This document shows, one piece after another, positions 13,717-21,770 of a DNA stretch of 64,000 bases. The stretch lies in the NCBI GenBank assembly GCA_965222075.1, contig OZ244937.1, forward strand, positions 5,280,001-5,344,000. Direction: 5' to 3'. Below the pieces are notes generated by a model that was given only the letters and a program-made list of their open reading frames with translations, did not search any database and was not told the DNA's origin. Origin of the DNA: Candidatus Latescibacterota bacterium (GTDB taxonomy: Bacteria > Latescibacterota > UBA2968 > GCA-2709665). The translations under genes and the position numbers were made by a program. Each line of letters starts with the position of its first letter. Position 1 is the stretch's first letter.

Positions 13717-13754
13717 GGCCAACGTTTCCGCCGGCTGTGAACCTGCGCAGCAGG
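13717..13754 (-). mobile_element. Half attC-like site (remnant)
   Basis: GGCCAACgtttccgccggctgtgaacctgcgcagcagg closely matches the left arms of the sites at 19315 and 17596; the other arm is missing. Confidence 0.6.
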
Positions 13755-14006
13755 CGCGGCGACCCAGTGATTATAATAGCGTGTGCCATCGTCGGGAGTC
13801 CCGCGTTCTGCAGCCGCCTTTAACTCGTCTGCGAGTGCTGTGGCCCACTCCTTCCAGGTGAAGTGACCCTGTTCAGAGAGCTTCACGGCCAGGGCGAATG
13901 CGTGGGCTTGCCAAGGTTCGGCGAAAATCGGCCCCTCCTCGTCTTGAGGCAAGGGTGGCAGAGCCTCAATTCGTTTGGCATCAAGGTTAGTGTCAGGCTG
14001 GCTCAA
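13755..14006 (-). pseudogene. Nitrile hydratase accessory protein, 3'-truncated
   Basis: PIFAEPWQAHAFALAVKL...FTWKEWA...YYNHWVAA, then it breaks into the half attC. Confidence 0.8.
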
Positions 14007-14656: not shown

Positions 14657-15031
14657 TCAAACCCCTTCCCGGAAACGCGTGACGATGGATCGCGCACCGC
14701 TGATCAAGAATTCGTCATCGGTTCCGATTGCAAGAAATCGGAACCCTTGCTCGATGTATCTGAACGCCGAATCGGCATCCGCCGTGTACGCGACTCCGGG
14801 GACCACTCCGTGGCGCTCGCAGGCGTTGAGAACCTTTTGAAATGCCCGCTGCAGGTCGGGATTGTCGAAGTCGAGGTGGCTACCATCGACGGATGTGCTG
14901 CCGATATGCTCAATTTCGAGGGCTGCATCCCCGAAGACAGCGAGAAGTCCTCTCTTCTCAGCATCGTATTTGTGTCGCCACTTCGGGTCGAATTCTGACA
15001 ACTCCCATATGACTGTCTCATCCACTGGCAT
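14657..15031 (-). pseudogene. Chimera of a GrpB-family N-terminus and an HpcH/HpaI aldolase C-terminus
   Basis: FDPKW...E...IEHIGSTSV (GrpB) fused in frame to NPDLQRAFQKVLNAC..HGVVPG...QGFRFLAIGTD (HpcH). Confidence 0.75.
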
Positions 15032-15085: not shown

Positions 15086-15177
15086 AGGTAACGTTCTCGC
15101 GGTTTGCGAACGCCGACAGGCGTTGCCGCAGGCCAAGGCGCCTGAAAGGCGGCGCAGCGAAAACCGTGCTGTTATCG
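15086..15177 (-). mobile_element. attC-like site 1
   Basis: Plus strand AGGTAAC-N7-CGGTTT...AAACCG-N4-GTTATCG, between two cassette genes. Confidence 0.8.
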
Positions 15178-15987: not shown

Positions 15988-16128
15988 CGATAACGTTCCC
16001 GGTGTGTGCGAACCTGCCGAGCGGGCGCGGCGGTTGCAACAGGGGTTTCGATTAGCAAGCGCCGTGACCGCGAAGGAAGGTTGGGCGATGGGGCGAATGC
16101 CCCAAAGCCGCAGCCGGTCGTATTAGCC
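15988..16128 (-). mobile_element. attC-like site 2 (degenerate core)
   Basis: CGATAAC...ATTAGCC with internal inverted repeats. Confidence 0.65.
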
Positions 16129-16811: not shown

Positions 16812-16892
16812 GGCTAACGTATCGCCGTGCCCGAGCCGCGCAGCGGTTGCGCGAAGGGCGTAAGCCCGAAGCCGGGCACGGACGTGTTAGCC
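16812..16892 (-). mobile_element. attC-like site 3
   Basis: GGCTAAC-N6-CCGTGCCCG...CGGGCACGG-N4-GTTAGCC. Confidence 0.85.
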
Positions 16893-16903
16893 GAAGTATG
16901 AAT

Positions 16904-17569
16904 TCACTTGAGGTTGCGTATTGTGCTCGGCAACTCGTCAAGATCGTCAACAACCGCATCCACAATCTCAGGCACCTCCCAGTACTCATCTCGCTTCCAA
17001 ATCGCTTTCATCCCGAAGGACTTGGCGCCCCGAACGTCGGCCTCCGGGTTGTCGCCAATCATGATAGCCTGATCTGGTGAGACGCCCAGGTTGTCGGTCG
17101 CACGACGGAAGATCTCCGCATCCGGTTTTGCGACCCCTTCTGCTTCCGAGATCAACATTGTGTCGAAATAGCGAGAGATTCCCAAACCATCAATCTTCGG
17201 CTGCTGCGAATCAACTCGCCCGTTCGTAACGAGCCCCATCTTTAAACCTTGTTGCCTGAGTATGGTAAGAGTCTGATGTGCCTTAGGAAACGGAACGCAT
17301 ATATGGGGAAAGTATGTCAGGAAGTCCTCCAGCAACCTCTGCCAAATACCGGGTGAGAGAGCAAAGTCGCGTTCAATGCTCCTAAACAGCCCCTCCTTCT
17401 CGGCGTGGCCATGTGCGTCCAACTCAATGACTCGCTCCATGTATTCGGCAAATGGAAGAGATTGAAGATCATTTGCTAGTCGTTCGACCTGAATATGCAG
17501 GTACACTCTAAGGCTACTGATCCGATCCAATAGCGTTCCGTCAAGATCGAAGAGCGCTGCTTGAAACAT
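16904..17569 (-). CDS. HAD-family hydrolase (cassette)
   Basis: FDLDGTL, VTNG, KPD, IGDNPEAD. Confidence 0.9.
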   Translation of the reverse strand: MFQAALFDLDGTLLDRISSLRVYLHIQVERLANDLQSLPFAEYMERVIELDAHGHAEKEGLFRSIERDFALSPGIWQRLLEDFLTYFPHICVPFPKAHQTLTILRQQGLKMGLVTNGRVDSQQPKIDGLGISRYFDTMLISEAEGVAKPDAEIFRRATDNLGVSPDQAIMIGDNPEADVRGAKSFGMKAIWKRDEYWEVPEIVDAVVDDLDELPSTIRNLK

Positions 17570-17595
17570 TTGTACCTCCAGTCGGACTCCATTTC

Positions 17596-17665
17596 GGCTA
17601 ACGGTCTCGCGGGCTGCGAACCCGCGCAGCGGGTTGGTGCGGAGGCGCAGCCCGACGTGTTAGGT
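17596..17665 (-). mobile_element. attC-like site 4
   Basis: GGCTAAC-N7-CGGGCTGCG...CGCAGCCCG-N4-GTTAGGT. Confidence 0.85.
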
Positions 17666-17691
17666 GCAGTGGCATTCAGATTCGTGTCTGG

Positions 17692-18138
17692 CTATTTCAG
17701 GCTCTTCCGAAAGAAGACCTCACTTGCAGGACCCGTGGGAGTCCCTGTCAGAATACCGCAGTCTTCGAAACCCATATGGCGGTGCCATTTCTGAGGGTCC
17801 AATTCATCCAGCTGAGAGGAACTAAGTAGATATGTGAATCCCTTCTCTCGGAGATAACATTCTAGAAAACCAAGCATAGACCGCCCCACACCCTGTCTTT
17901 GATACTTCTTCAAGACTATGATCCCGCTGATGTAGGGCGCGCTATAGTGATGGCCCTGCCAGATGAACTGAAATTCCAGGACACCAACCGGCTCTCCATC
18001 CAATTCCGCAACGATAAACTCCTTTAGCCGGATCTTCGTTTCCACTACATCCACGGTTTCTATTGAAAGCGTATGCTTGCACCATTTGGCGTCCTCGTCC
18101 TTCGCAAACCTCACGACCGTGTCACTAGACCTTGTCAT
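17692..18138 (-). CDS. GNAT acetyltransferase (cassette)
   Basis: YQRQGVG acetyl-CoA motif; WHRHMGF. Confidence 0.85.
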   Translation of the reverse strand: MTRSSDTVVRFAKDEDAKWCKHTLSIETVDVVETKIRLKEFIVAELDGEPVGVLEFQFIWQGHHYSAPYISGIIVLKKYQRQGVGRSMLGFLECYLREKGFTYLLSSSQLDELDPQKWHRHMGFEDCGILTGTPTGPASEVFFRKSLK

Positions 18139-18200
18139 GAAAGTACCAGCCTTTGTAAGAGATGGAGGACTTCGCCGAGAGGTCGAGACTGCGCCATTGC

Positions 18201-18298
18201 GCCTAACGTTCCCGCCACTTGCGAGCCCCGAGCTTGTCGAGGGGTTGCCGACAGGACAAGGCGCCGTAGGCGACGCAGCGCAAAACGCTGTGTTGGGC
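18201..18298 (-). mobile_element. attC-like site 5
   Basis: GCCTAAC...GTTGGGC with internal hairpins. Confidence 0.75.
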
Positions 18299-18326
18299 GA
18301 AGGAGCACGTCTTTTAGGGTATCATC

Positions 18327-18551
18327 CTATGCTTCGAGAAACTCCTCTGTTGTTACCCCAGCTTGCTTCAAGATTGCAGACAAGGTTCCTTCCGGTAAAT
18401 CCCCAGGATGGTTGGGGATCGTCGTTCGGCACCGGGTAGCAGGATTCCACCAGATTTCATGGCTCCCTCGTGCATGCCGATCAAACTCAAATCCCAACCG
18501 TCTCAGTTTTCCAGTTATTTGTCGATAGGTGAAACCTGCAAGACGTCCCAT
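18327..18551 (-). CDS. hicA: HicA-family toxin
   Basis: LRRLGFEFDRHARGSHEIW...IPNHPGDLPEGTLSAILKQAG. Confidence 0.9.
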   Translation of the reverse strand: MGRLAGFTYRQITGKLRRLGFEFDRHARGSHEIWWNPATRCRTTIPNHPGDLPEGTLSAILKQAGVTTEEFLEA

Positions 18552-18796
18552 CAGGCTCCTACCAGTATGTCCAGTTCAACAACCTCAGTATCCAGCGTTT
18601 GCAATCCTTCTGGGAGAGGATCACCGTGTTCACGGTAGGATTCAATCAGTTTTCGTGCCACATCCTGTGCAATCTCAGTTGTTTCGGCCACTGTTCTGCC
18701 TTGAGCAACTAAACCAGGAAAGCTATCCGAAGTAGCTAAAAATTGGCCGTTTTCAACTTTCTGCACTTGAAGATGCAATCTATATTCTTCTGACAC
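18551..18796 (-). CDS. hicB: HicB-family antitoxin (short, no DNA-binding domain)
   Basis: FPGLVAQGRTVAE...A...LIE....GDPLP; overlaps hicA by one base. Confidence 0.85.
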   Translation of the reverse strand: MSEEYRLHLQVQKVENGQFLATSDSFPGLVAQGRTVAETTEIAQDVARKLIESYREHGDPLPEGLQTLDTEVVELDILVGA

Positions 18797-18863
18797 GGCT
18801 CATGCTCCTGTTTGGTGAATAAGGTTAGCTTTTTCGCGTCAACAAACCCTGAGAATATTGACG

Positions 18864-19286
18864 TTAAGTTTTTCTATGCATAACTACCTGTTGAGTAACC
18901 CGAAATTTGCAACTTTTATAGAGAGAGGTCAATTCGGGGTCACAAAATAAAGAGACGATATCGATATCAGCTAGTTCCTCAAGAAGTCGCCTGAGCACAG
19001 CTTTTGCAATACCTGTACGATGATCGGGGTGTACTGTTACATCTTCTATATAAGCACGGAAATGCCCGTCTAGCACCGCGCGCGCAAATCCGATCAAGTC
19101 CTCTTCCTTCCAAGCACCCACTGCAGGATTACGGTTAAGAACGTCAGTAATATCCTGTAGAGAACGCTCCGGACACCACTCATTGGCAGCATAAAGACGA
19201 CGTACAGCATCTGCCGGTATAGGATGCTCTTGATGAGTGCGAATCACGTAATTTACCATTTCAGCGCAGGTATTAATGGAAACCAT
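18864..19286 (-). CDS. GNAT acetyltransferase (cassette)
   Basis: LIGFARAV.DG...AYIEDVTVHPDHRTGIA; the start must lie downstream of attC 6. Confidence 0.8.
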   Translation of the reverse strand: MVSINTCAEMVNYVIRTHQEHPIPADAVRRLYAANEWCPERSLQDITDVLNRNPAVGAWKEEDLIGFARAVLDGHFRAYIEDVTVHPDHRTGIAKAVLRRLLEELADIDIVSLFCDPELTSLYKSCKFRVTQQVVMHRKT

Positions 19287-19314
19287 GGTTGAACAAATAT
19301 TGGTTTGCTCTTTC

Positions 19315-19400
19315 GCCCAACGTTTCCGCGGGCTGCGAACCTGCGAACCAGGTTGGGTCGGAGGTGCGAATGCGCCGCAGTGCAAACTGATGTGTTAGCC
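19315..19400 (-). mobile_element. attC-like site 6
   Basis: GCCCAAC...GTTAGCC; left arm nearly identical to site 4. Confidence 0.8.
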
Positions 19401-19421
19401 GAAGTCGATCTATTTCCAAGG

Positions 19422-20159
19422 TTACATTTTTCTGACTATGAAGTATGCACGTCTGCCCAGCTCATAGGGCTCGCAATCCAGTGACGAAAAAGTATCGCAC
19501 ACCTCGAAACCCACCTCGGAAAAGAGAAATGTCAACTCTCGAAACCCGTAGACCCGCATAGAGCTTATCTTCGTCTCGGAAATTCCGTTCGCAACCAAAG
19601 TCCATTCAGTATCGATCCGGCTCTCCACGTGTCGGTAGTTCGTGTCCTCCAGGACAACTGTTTCACCTGCTTTGCTCCAACCGCGGAACCGGAGTCTTGG
19701 GAGTATTGTTTCAGCGACGTTGGGAATATCCAGAGCAAACCTCGAACCAGTCTTGAGCGCTCGATGCACTGCCTCAAGGAATCGCCTATTTCCGTCGTCG
19801 TCGAAGTATCCGAAACTTCCCCAAAAACAGAATGCCGCATCGAATGTCTCAATCCAGGACAGATCCCTCATATCCGTCTCGACAAGCTCAAGATCAAGAT
19901 TCGCTTCTTGTGAAGCGGATTGCGCCTCTTGAAGAAGGACTGTCGTGATGTCAACGCCAGTTACTTTATAGCCTCTCTCAGCCAGCGGAATCGCCAATCT
20001 ACCATTGCCACACGGCACATCGAGAACCCGACACCCTGGCTTCAAATTGAGCGCGCGCACGAGAAAGTCTACCTCTTCTGAAGTACGCCCTGCTCGCGAG
20101 TTTCTTTGAACGTCGAGCCAGTTTCCCGCAAAAAAAGTGGTCCACCACTCAGTACTCAC
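19422..20159 (-). CDS. Class I SAM-dependent methyltransferase (cassette)
   Basis: VLDVPCGNGR, DMRDL, SFGYF; RBS GGAGG before GTG at 20159. Confidence 0.9.
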   Translation of the reverse strand: MSTEWWTTFFAGNWLDVQRNSRAGRTSEEVDFLVRALNLKPGCRVLDVPCGNGRLAIPLAERGYKVTGVDITTVLLQEAQSASQEANLDLELVETDMRDLSWIETFDAAFCFWGSFGYFDDDGNRRFLEAVHRALKTGSRFALDIPNVAETILPRLRFRGWSKAGETVVLEDTNYRHVESRIDTEWTLVANGISETKISSMRVYGFRELTFLFSEVGFEVCDTFSSLDCEPYELGRRAYFIVRKM

Positions 20160-20199
20160 GTTTAACCTCCAATCTCGGGTCACTCCAACATTCGATTTC

Positions 20200-20283
20200 A
20201 GCTAACGTTTTCGCCGTGCCCGAACCGCGAAGCGGTTGGGCGAAGGGCCGTATGGCCCGTAGCCGGACACGGACGTGTTAACC
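20200..20283 (-). mobile_element. attC-like site 7
   Basis: AGCTAAC-N7-CCGTGCCCG...CGGACACGG-N4-GTTAACC; close relative of site 3. Confidence 0.85.
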
Positions 20284-20927: not shown

Positions 20928-20962
20928 GGTTAACTACGGGATTACCGAACAGTTACGGTAAT
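20928..20962 (-). mobile_element. attI-like array head site
   Basis: Minus strand ATTACCG-N8-CGGTAAT-N6-GTTAACC; the core pairs with the far end of cassette 1; no long attC hairpin. Confidence 0.6.
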
Positions 20963-20994
20963 ACGCGCCAGATCTGAGGATTTCCGAACGTTCG

Positions 20995-21393
20995 GGAACA
21001 TTTTGTTAATATTGGTTTTTGCAAGCCCGGTCAAACGCTTTCTGTACCGACCGCCCGGTCACCCGGTCTGGCGCCCGGGAACAGCCATGTTCGGGGTTGA
21101 TATTGGCGCCTGTAGTCTTGAACCGCCTTCTGTGCGACTGTGGAGAGCATCGTGTAACGATCCTTCCGGTGCTTGCCCTGGCGGATATGGAGCAGTTTTC
21201 GATCCCCGTCGATGTCTTCGACCTTCAACCGGACCACTTCACCCAGCCGAAGGCCTCCGGAATAGGTCAACAGCATGATCGCCTGGTGCTTCAGGTTTTC
21301 TACTGCATCCAGTAACCGAAGCACTTCTGCCCGGCTCAACACAGTGGGCAATTTGTGCTCCTTTTTCGGACGGGGCAGGTTTTCAAGAGGATA
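20995..21393 (-). pseudogene. Tyrosine recombinase remnant (non-IntI, integron-like family)
   Basis: PRPKKEHKLPTVLS...YSGGLRLGE...QGKHRKDRYTMLS...WLFPG, then frameshifted RSVQKAFDRACK; N-terminal domain, HxxR and Tyr are lost. Confidence 0.85.
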
Positions 21394-21770
21394 TTCCATT
21401 GAGGTCTTCTCTCGGCATTGCGGCTGAAAAAAGTGGATTGGCTTTGCTTTCAAACAAATCCCGTGCCGTAGAGACCGCTAACGGAGAACAATAAATGAAC
21501 CTGTTGTGAAATTAGTGTCAGATGGGAGAATATCCTTTTTTAAACAGACCTTTCAGGTTGCTGATTTGTTTCAAAACAGACCGTTCAACGCATTCAGAAA
21601 GTACCATATCCGAAGCGCTGAGAACGTGAACCTATTGTATTTTCAGGTCGTCGTATTGCCCCAATAAGGCGCTCACGGGATGGCGGAAGAGGGGCTGTGG
21701 GCGCGTTATCAAGCGCAGACGGTGATACAGGCGGCTCCGGCGGGTGTAGAGGCGTAAGCGCTGACTGAAG

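Follow-up and report, generated by a model that had tools for sequence, protein, structure and literature searches.

Hairpin sites with a one-sided bulge and an integrase-like pseudogene in a Candidatus Latescibacterota genome: probable remains of a non-canonical integron-like element

An array of gene cassettes beside a recombinase pseudogene

We analyzed a 64,000-nucleotide (nt) stretch of a Candidatus Latescibacterota genome (GenBank assembly GCA_965222075.1, contig OZ244937.1, positions 5,280,001 to 5,344,000 of the forward strand; hereafter the window), which carries an integron-like array of gene cassettes next to a broken tyrosine recombinase gene. From about 13.7 to 20.9 kb, every gene is on the - strand, and between one gene and the next stand hairpin sites of the form RYYYAAC...GTTRRRY, read on the + strand. 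Seven of these resemble attC, the cassette recombination site of integrons, and are named wA to wG here; a half-site occupies 13717-13755. An earlier description of this DNA, made from its letters alone (the sequence-only reading), had numbered wA, wC, wD and wG as sites 1, 3, 4 and 7. Core boxes were readable in all seven sites, with an A in place of a G in wB. The features are given below, with bit scores from R1, a covariance model of this site family described further on; extrahelical bases are those of the minimum-energy fold.

13717..13755, + strand: remnant of an attC-like site, at the array's far end, 5' half alone (R' box and spacer, then the first stem arm and the first inner hairpin), found by reading the sequence
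14657-15031, - strand: cassette gene, GrpB fragment
15086..15177, + strand: site wA, stem with one mismatch, bottom strand = + strand; R1, 57.1 bits
15191-16039, - strand: cassette gene, methyltransferase
15988..16128, + strand: site wB, degenerate, R'' box ATTAGCC, stem broken; R1, 45.2 bits
16187-16744, - strand: cassette gene, NUDIX
16812..16892, + strand: site wC, perfect 9-bp stem, spacers of 6 and 4 nt, A16882 extrahelical; R1, 74.8 bits
16904-17569, - strand: cassette gene, HAD hydrolase
17596..17665, + strand: site wD, perfect 9-bp stem, spacers of 7 and 4 nt, A17655 extrahelical; R1, 64 bits
17692-18138, - strand: cassette gene, GNAT
18201..18298, + strand: site wE, degenerate, three stem mismatches; R1, 45.2 bits
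18327-18551, - strand: cassette gene, HicA-family toxin
18551-18796, - strand: partner open reading frame (ORF) of the HicA-family toxin gene
18864-19385, - strand: cassette gene, GNAT
19315..19400, + strand: site wF, 5' arm and 3' arm from different subtypes, no stem; R1, 64.5 bits
19422-20183, - strand: cassette gene, methyltransferase
20200..20283, + strand: site wG, 9-bp stem with one mismatch, spacers of 7 and 4 nt, A20273 extrahelical; R1, 88 bits
20371-20889, - strand: cassette gene, 2'-5' RNA ligase family
20929..21001, - strand: attI-like platform site, crossover in GGTTAAC (20929-20935), which complements the wG R'' box exactly
21002..21453, - strand: pseudogene of an IntI-like tyrosine recombinase without the IntI insertion, frameshifted, 3' part deleted

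The half-site was not reported by R1 (window search, E-value limit of 1), and Rfam yielded no matches in the window. The cassette gene content is typical of sedentary integrons.

The genome holds no integron integrase, as its best score against the integron-integrase model TIGR02249 was 93 bits versus a cut-off of 265, and only two whole tyrosine recombinases, of 325 and 306 amino acids (aa), were found in it. Here and below, G-numbers denote related genomes (61 were compared, and the window's genome is G000), and L-numbers denote the loci compared. The ORF at 21031-21453 (-) is a fragment that corresponds to residues ~145-259 of a 346-aa orthologue in G018, with 88% identity. Owing to the 3' deletion, the codons for ...ANINK directly abut the attI-like region. 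Two more broken copies of this gene lie elsewhere in the genome, and all three genomic copies are broken.

Stems, spacers and folds of the sites compared with canonical attC

The sequence-only reading had described unbulged stems and unequal spacers, and both the sequence and our table of site anatomy agree with it. The stems of wC (CCGTGCCCG/CGGGCACGG) and wD (CGGGCTGCG/CGCAGCCCG) are perfect over 9 base pairs (bp), and wG has the stem of wC with one C.A mismatch, no bulge and arms of equal length. On the + strand, the spacers of these three sites measure 6-7 nt after RYYYAAC and 4 nt (ACGT) before GTTRRRY; on the - strand, which that reading used, they are, as it wrote, 4 nt after R'' and 6-7 nt before R'. 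In the minimum-energy DNA fold, the last CG of the long spacer pairs with the CG of ACGT in all three, and this leaves one extrahelical A on the GTT arm (A16882, A17655 and A20273, respectively). Thus, "unbulged" is true of the 9-bp stem and not of the whole helix. The fold departs from the one first described in that it contains a G.T pair and a 4-nt bulge confined to the AAC arm, and in many cases a single extrahelical base on the other arm, 2 bp into the stem. Extrahelical bases in an alternative fold were one half of what the sequence-only reading had named as evidence against itself; such a base is present in these three sites, but it lies at position 11, not at 16 and 23/24, and it is missing in many sites of the family.

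The same fold-and-parse method was applied to 94 distinct family sites found by sequence profile. The commonest fold had a G.T pair beside AAC/GTT, then a bulge on the AAC arm with nothing opposite, and then the helix. This one-sided bulge was present in 49 of the 94 sites, being 4 nt long in 41 and 3 nt in 8, and its letters are G, T and then pyrimidines. These data indicated that the surplus of unpaired letters lies on the AAC arm, the reverse of the canon. A single bulged base on the other arm, after 2 bp, was the sole irregularity in 26 sites and occurred with others in about 9 more; 15 parsed sites lacked any bulged base, and 4 had two bulges on that arm. The bulged base sits at position 11 from the 3' end, its identity varies (A, T, G or C), and it is gone where the stem extends to 11-12 bp. 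Perfect stems are common but not universal, since a perfect run of at least 8 bp was seen in 43/94 sites.

Canonical attC sites leave 5-6 nt unpaired on each arm; on the arm facing AAC they have two or three extrahelical bases, of which the first falls at position 16, within L'', and the last lies 6 bp beyond it (Nivina 2016, PMC5027507). The family sites keep the inverse core boxes RYYYAAC...GTTRRRY, with AAC/GTT pairs invariant or nearly so in 17/17 aligned sites. They lack the two-sided spacer of 5-6 nt, as the distances are 6-7 versus 4 nt to the 9-bp stem, or 3-4 versus 0 nt in the fold of 49/94 sites; most have at most one bulge, without the G/T extrahelical pair 6 bp apart, and their extra nucleotides are on the AAC arm instead of the opposite one. 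As canonical controls we used two attC sites only, both from a class 3 integron on a plasmid. For the blaGES-5 attC the method returned a 5x4 internal loop, followed after 3 bp by a bulged G and, 6 bp beyond that, by a bulged T, and the aacA4 attC had its bulges on the arm where the canon has them. Run with filters off, R1 matched neither of them. Thus, the fold geometry of the family sites is not canonical, and in this the sequence-only reading was borne out.

The terminal variable part of the family sites is not a simple loop and comprises two or three small hairpins, often with GAA or GCA triloops. This makes the site a three- or four-way junction in which hardly any base at the joint is left unpaired. 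The oligonucleotide d(GCGAAGC) is known as an unusually stable DNA mini-hairpin.

Covariation, cassette boundaries and strand use

A structural scan revealed more such sites in two other regions of the window's genome. The strict version of the scan gave 44 hits genome-wide (each site counted on both strands) versus 26 in a reversed-sequence control, so single hits mean little and clusters alone were used. Loose pattern scans were uninformative, yielding 79 mostly random pairs and pattern counts at chance level. For the covariation test, the structure was written from the site anatomy and 17 sites were used, which aligned well. Ten of the 11 stem pairs change on both sides, which is the compensatory change looked for in an attC hairpin, and 92% of cells are paired, versus 74.6% in shuffles and 33-38% in slid controls.

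Building a new covariance model and searching genomes with it, as the sequence-only reading had advised, gave a family of sites well beyond the window and far larger than chance would yield. R1, made from the same 17 sites, found the seven window sites, and over the window and eight other loci all of its matches (43/43) lay on the + strand. It found 51 sites in the whole genome, in several arrays, and sites were present in 38 of the 61 related genomes. Among the 51 genomic matches, 48 lie on the + strand (arrays at 3.447-3.471, 4.159-4.175 and 0.972-0.982 Mb and in the window), which indicates that the arrays of this genome share one chromosomal orientation.

The R'' box of a site is the exact complement of the next site's R' box (bottom strand) at all four variable positions in 32/68 neighbour pairs, compared with 7/94 for the R' box of the same site, 0/68 for the reverse neighbour and 3.6% for shuffled partners. 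Two duplicated cassettes (888 and 1591 bp) start at the TAAC of one site and stop at, or just before, the TAAC of the next, with the gene of each duplicated unit on the - strand inside it. These boundaries, together with the gene enclosed, indicated that the mobile unit is a gene plus its own site. The R boxes are accordingly chimeric, with the crossover on the ORF-distal side, as in integron cassettes.

It could be argued that the hairpins are repeated extragenic palindromes or terminators between genes, given that they are G+C-rich and lie between co-oriented genes with no convergent pairs. The half-box complementarity of neighbouring sites and the duplicated units bounded within the conserved TAAC already contradict this; moreover, the AAC/GTT triplets are conserved while their flanks vary, and the R1 matches are strand specific. 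We regard this explanation as extremely unlikely: the hairpins are real cassette recombination sites.

Judging from cassette boundaries and platform junctions, the crossover takes place within the ORF-distal box, at the AAC triplet, on the strand that does not carry the genes; in canonical integrons, too, this bottom strand is the one used. The sequence-only reading had inferred a different strand selection, and the use of a different strand is not supported. Folding of both strands, which it had proposed, showed the bottom strand to be the more stable one in 7/7 window sites, and the same held for 80/94 family sites. C-GNA-G motifs numbered 256 on the bottom strand of the family sites versus 41 on the other strand. 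With the strand itself canonical and the fold not, it is the manner in which the strand is chosen that would differ from the canonical one.

The insertion-less recombinase, its insertion point and its arrays

Whole relatives of the window pseudogene have the domains PF13495 and PF00589, of which the window copy retains only part of PF00589. They combine a SAM-like N-terminal domain with a catalytic domain, and their catalytic R, K, HxxR, H and Y motifs align with those of IntI. All fell below the whole-protein cut-off of TIGR02249 (265 bits), at 72.4 bits for the window fragment, 240.9 for the G003 protein and 212.6 for the G004 protein, while the true IntI of G004 scored 464.6. The integron-integrase model is nevertheless the best-scoring one for the whole copies, which match it in two stretches and skip the insertion. 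In five whole proteins and the window fragment, 25+6+10 residues of the G004 IntI, corresponding to the IntI insertion (I2 helix domain), are missing. In canonical integrases this insertion contacts the extrahelical bases of attC. The sequence-only reading had proposed that site and recombinase differ from the canon in matching ways, and comparison across genomes bears this out: the insertion residues are missing, the scores are below the cut-off, and the genes lie beside such arrays in many genomes.

A quick tree placed four canonical IntI proteins in one well-supported clade among the insertion-less proteins. It left out L089 (Cyclobacteriaceae) and L035 (Chlorobiaceae), and its two Xer rows are on very long branches, one being possibly mis-extracted. 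The protein collection holds more than 7500 relatives, labelled tyrosine-type recombinase/integrase, XerD, or "site-specific tyrosine recombinase/integron integrase". Array-linked recombinases of L036, L040, L037, L067 and L033 are longer at the N-terminus by about 100 residues, and these extra stretches have a motif in common, G-R-x-W ... W-x-V/I-P; one of the recombinases gave a weak HARP-like Pfam hit and HTH_17, and the copies of the window's clade are without the extra stretch.

The insertion-less gene lies upstream of family arrays and is co-directed with the cassettes in G002, G018, G020, G038, G044, G058, G060 and G012, in four of the six G007 copies and twice in G000. Canonical IntI exceeded the cut-off in only 6/61 related genomes, while 38/61 have family sites. 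Among the 13 genomes with at least 10 sites, one has canonical IntI and 10 have the insertion-less gene or pieces of it. At the six canonical IntI loci, four of which span less than 4 kb, R1 found no family sites; a search beside these genes for canonical attC arrays found nothing array-like in five loci, four of them below 4 kb.

The linkage crosses phyla. Eighty loci from other phyla were picked by protein similarity alone among the matches listed, with identities of 37-58%. R1 matched six of them, and 15/15 of these sites are downstream of the gene on the strand opposite to it (-). In the same 80 loci, again among the matches listed, a sequence-independent structural scan found 46 sites downstream on the opposite strand; the remaining downstream class had 3 and the two upstream classes had 4 and 2, in 282 kb of downstream versus 608 kb of upstream DNA. 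One of the loci, from Desulfitobacterium, has the gene followed by at least 10 one-gene cassettes, and another is archaeal (Methanoperedenaceae).

A fixed insertion point accompanies the gene. A 7-mer complementary to the R'' box of the first cassette was found after the gene in all 16 cases examined, as an exact match in 15 and, in G038, with a single mismatch. It lies 86-290 nt after the gene in 11/16 cases (including G038) and at +1489 in all four G007 copies, which carry four different 7-mers. In further loci it was found in 13/15, in seven of them 27-138 nt past the stop codon, against a chance expectation of 0.015-0.3 per locus. The junction falls exactly at G|TT, and the RRRY that follows can pair with the site belonging to the first cassette. 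Ahead of the junction, the window, G002, G018, G044 and G020 share a conserved sequence, which consists of palindromes with AAC..GTT centres, two of which precede the crossover in gene direction in the window; other lineages have different palindromes at the same place. At the Desulfitobacterium locus, a 7-mer at +961 was considered as attI and rejected, as it is a site missed by the model; the likely junction is at +138.

These observations bear on the most conventional explanation, an ordinary cluster of attC sites lacking an integron integrase (CALIN): canonical IntI would have been lost or lie elsewhere, the sites would be a lineage-specific attC flavour read through a single extrahelical base, and the neighbouring recombinase would be unrelated. 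The arrays are indeed canonical in their core boxes and crossover point and in the order and content of their cassettes, a base on the canonical arm is extruded in wC, wD, wG and about 35/78 parsed sites, and canonical IntI occurs in 6/61 related genomes. CALINs without a nearby integrase are described as common (Cury 2016, PMC4889954), and some attC sites are stated to tolerate the loss of extrahelical bases (PMC5027507). However, no IntI exceeded the cut-off in G000, G002, G007, G018, G020, G038 or G044, each of which has 4 to 51 sites, and family matches are absent from the six canonical IntI loci (again with four below 4 kb). Nor would an unrelated neighbour account for the fixed start of the first cassette after the insertion-less gene in many lineages, or for four identical G007 copies that precede four different first cassettes, and the bulged base on which such reading would depend is missing in 15 parsed sites and in most Desulfitobacterium sites. 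On balance, we consider an ordinary CALIN unlikely.

A subgroup of the IS91 family that carries a tyrosine recombinase gene before its transposase has been described. The recombinase might belong to an IS91-family unit, or a similar one, that lands beside GTT-bearing sites, with its nearness to the arrays reflecting target choice. In G007 and G004 there is exactly this recombinase-transposase pair: the G007 gene is followed by a Y2_Tnp/Zn_Tnp_IS91 transposase in a multi-copy unit of ~2.6 kb (six copies with sharp left ends), and in G004 the pair adjoins a true IntI. The three broken gene copies in G000 and the gene copies that occur within arrays also fit such mobility. By tblastn, however, the Y2 transposase was present in only 8/122 loci, those of G004 and G007 plus one Clostridia locus, where it is non-adjacent; the window's genome has none, adjacent or otherwise, and nearly all other loci have the recombinase without it. 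Furthermore, a G|TT junction with complementary RRRY is what a site-specific attI x attC exchange leaves, and the left flanks of the G007 copies are without an attC body. IS91 was therefore set aside as a general cause after the distribution of its transposase was seen, and, that transposase being nearly confined to G004 and G007, the link is taken as a side branch; we judge this explanation highly unlikely.

The G004 locus (L014 / L025, G004:C1:2493441-2496954) has in succession a true integron integrase, the insertion-less recombinase and the IS91-family transposase, and this trio, or part of it, is repeated at G004:2158606-2161600.

The loci share with canonical integrons (class 1, class 3 and the Vibrio cholerae repeats, VCR, with VchIntIA) the RYYYAAC/GTTRRRY boxes, the AAC crossover on the bottom strand, a folded imperfect palindrome with variable terminal structure and a more stable bottom strand, cassettes of one gene that precedes its site, arrays with chimeric R boxes, and the PF13495+PF00589 architecture of the recombinase. 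In addition to the site geometry, they differ in that the recombinase is without the IntI insertion and does not reach the cut-off of TIGR02249, and in that its gene is co-directed with the cassettes, with the insertion point past the stop codon. Inverted integrase genes are known from Treponema integrons. In archaeal integrons, attI lies immediately downstream of intI, and those with a co-oriented integrase show the same order of recombinase, attI and cassettes in one direction (Ghaly 2022, PMC9668308); however, their integrases are reported to have the IntI-specific additional domain (PMC9668308), which is lacking here.

All arrays of the window's genome fit the published definition of a CALIN, attC-like sites without IntI (Cury 2016, PMC4889954), yet they come with a particular recombinase gene, not that of IntI, and with an insertion point that is fixed. 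For this reason, "lacking an integrase" is possibly an artefact of that definition. The proteins resemble the "integron-like" subgroup of simple tyrosine recombinases (Smyshlyaev 2021, PMC8138268) in scoring best on the integron-integrase model; in contrast to the loci here, the description of that subgroup in the part of the paper drawn on contains no link of insertion-less members to cassette arrays or to a matching site geometry. A literature search, which did not extend to subscription journals or supplements, likewise turned up no paper that connects insertion-less recombinases with attC arrays, so this means "not found" rather than "not published".

Taken with the rivals above, we read the window from 13.7 to 21.5 kb as the remains of a non-canonical integron-like element, an integron variant with its own integrase, at a probability of roughly two in three. 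Several points weigh against this reading. The layout is not uniform, the gene being divergent or inside the array in G003 and G057, and G020 and one G007 copy have sites on both sides of it. Among the matches listed, 58 of the 80 distant loci have no downstream site, many of them with little downstream DNA, and the structural scan demanded the very asymmetry that was later counted by strand. The tree was made by a quick method and its backbone is unresolved. About 45% of the sites (the 35/78 noted above) are able to extrude one base on the canonical arm, and canonical IntI tolerates some attC sites that have lost extrahelical bases (Nivina 2016, PMC5027507). The G007 and G004 transposase pairs point in the same direction. 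That the recombinase acts on these sites is suggested by comparison across genomes, and IntI may act in trans or have since been lost; six of the 61 related genomes do have IntI.

For the proposed integron variant, the data show the site anatomy, the covariation, where cassettes begin and end, and the association of gene, insertion point and array across phyla; we infer that the insertion-less recombinase performs the reaction, that it acts on single-stranded DNA and that the choice of strand is made by the bulge. In gene direction (-), the element comprises the recombinase gene, the attI-like site ~100 nt further on, and then nine or so promoterless cassettes ending in hairpin sites. These sites have kept the integron core boxes, and crossover takes place at the AAC triplet on the bottom strand (the + strand here). 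Between R box and stem, a pyrimidine-rich bulge, G-T-Y-Y-Y, of 4-5 nt is present on the AAC arm only, with 0-1 nt on the opposite arm, and the stem does without the pair of spaced extrahelical bases that marks canonical attC. In this account the recombinase, the closest kin of integron integrases but minus the insertion (I2 helix region), would bind the R box and stem of the folded bottom strand. The one-sided bulge would give a 6-nt "central region" to the cleaved strand only and almost none to the other strand; it would thereby fix the bend and therefore the active strand and the active monomer. The reaction partner would be the double-stranded attI-like site with its palindromic binding sites.

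A larger proposal is that of a second, widespread integron class, in which an I2-less IntI-like recombinase stands upstream of its own attI and cassettes and the strand is marked by a one-sided bulge. We hold this to be evenly balanced between true and false, and the same balance applies to the joint claim that the class extends over Bacteroidota, Bacillota, Ignavibacteriota, Nitrospirota, Thermodesulfobacteriota, Archaea and the class to which the window belongs. Integrons are detected through the IntI insertion and a canonical attC model, so a class without both would be filed as CALIN or missed. If real, it would account for many "integrase-less" cassette clusters, with a bearing on the origin of CALINs, and for the apparent lack of integrons in some phyla; integrons are reported to be almost lacking in Firmicutes and uncommon among Bacteroidota (IntegronFinder 2.0, PMC9024848). 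The insertion-less state may then be ancestral, with canonical IntI arising by gain of the insertion, which would bear on the origin of single-strand recombination before the I2 helix (Escudero 2020, PMC7790495). Such a class would also offer a structure-specific recombination site with simpler rules.

For the window alone the matter is smaller, that of a decaying relic array with a broken recombinase gene. Since all three gene copies are broken and 3/7 window sites are decayed, the array is probably inactive. In wF, the 5' half is of the subtype with stem arm CGGGCTGCG and the 3' half of the subtype ending ...GCAG-CGCAAACCG, with the switch within the inner hairpin region; with arms of two subtypes its stem cannot form, and wF looks as if two attC subtypes had undergone homologous recombination. 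A short distance upstream of the recombinase fragment, a 16-nt inverted repeat (21445-21460 / 21563-21578, 88% complementary) surrounds an A+T-rich stretch and may mark the rearrangement that took away the 5' part of the recombinase gene.

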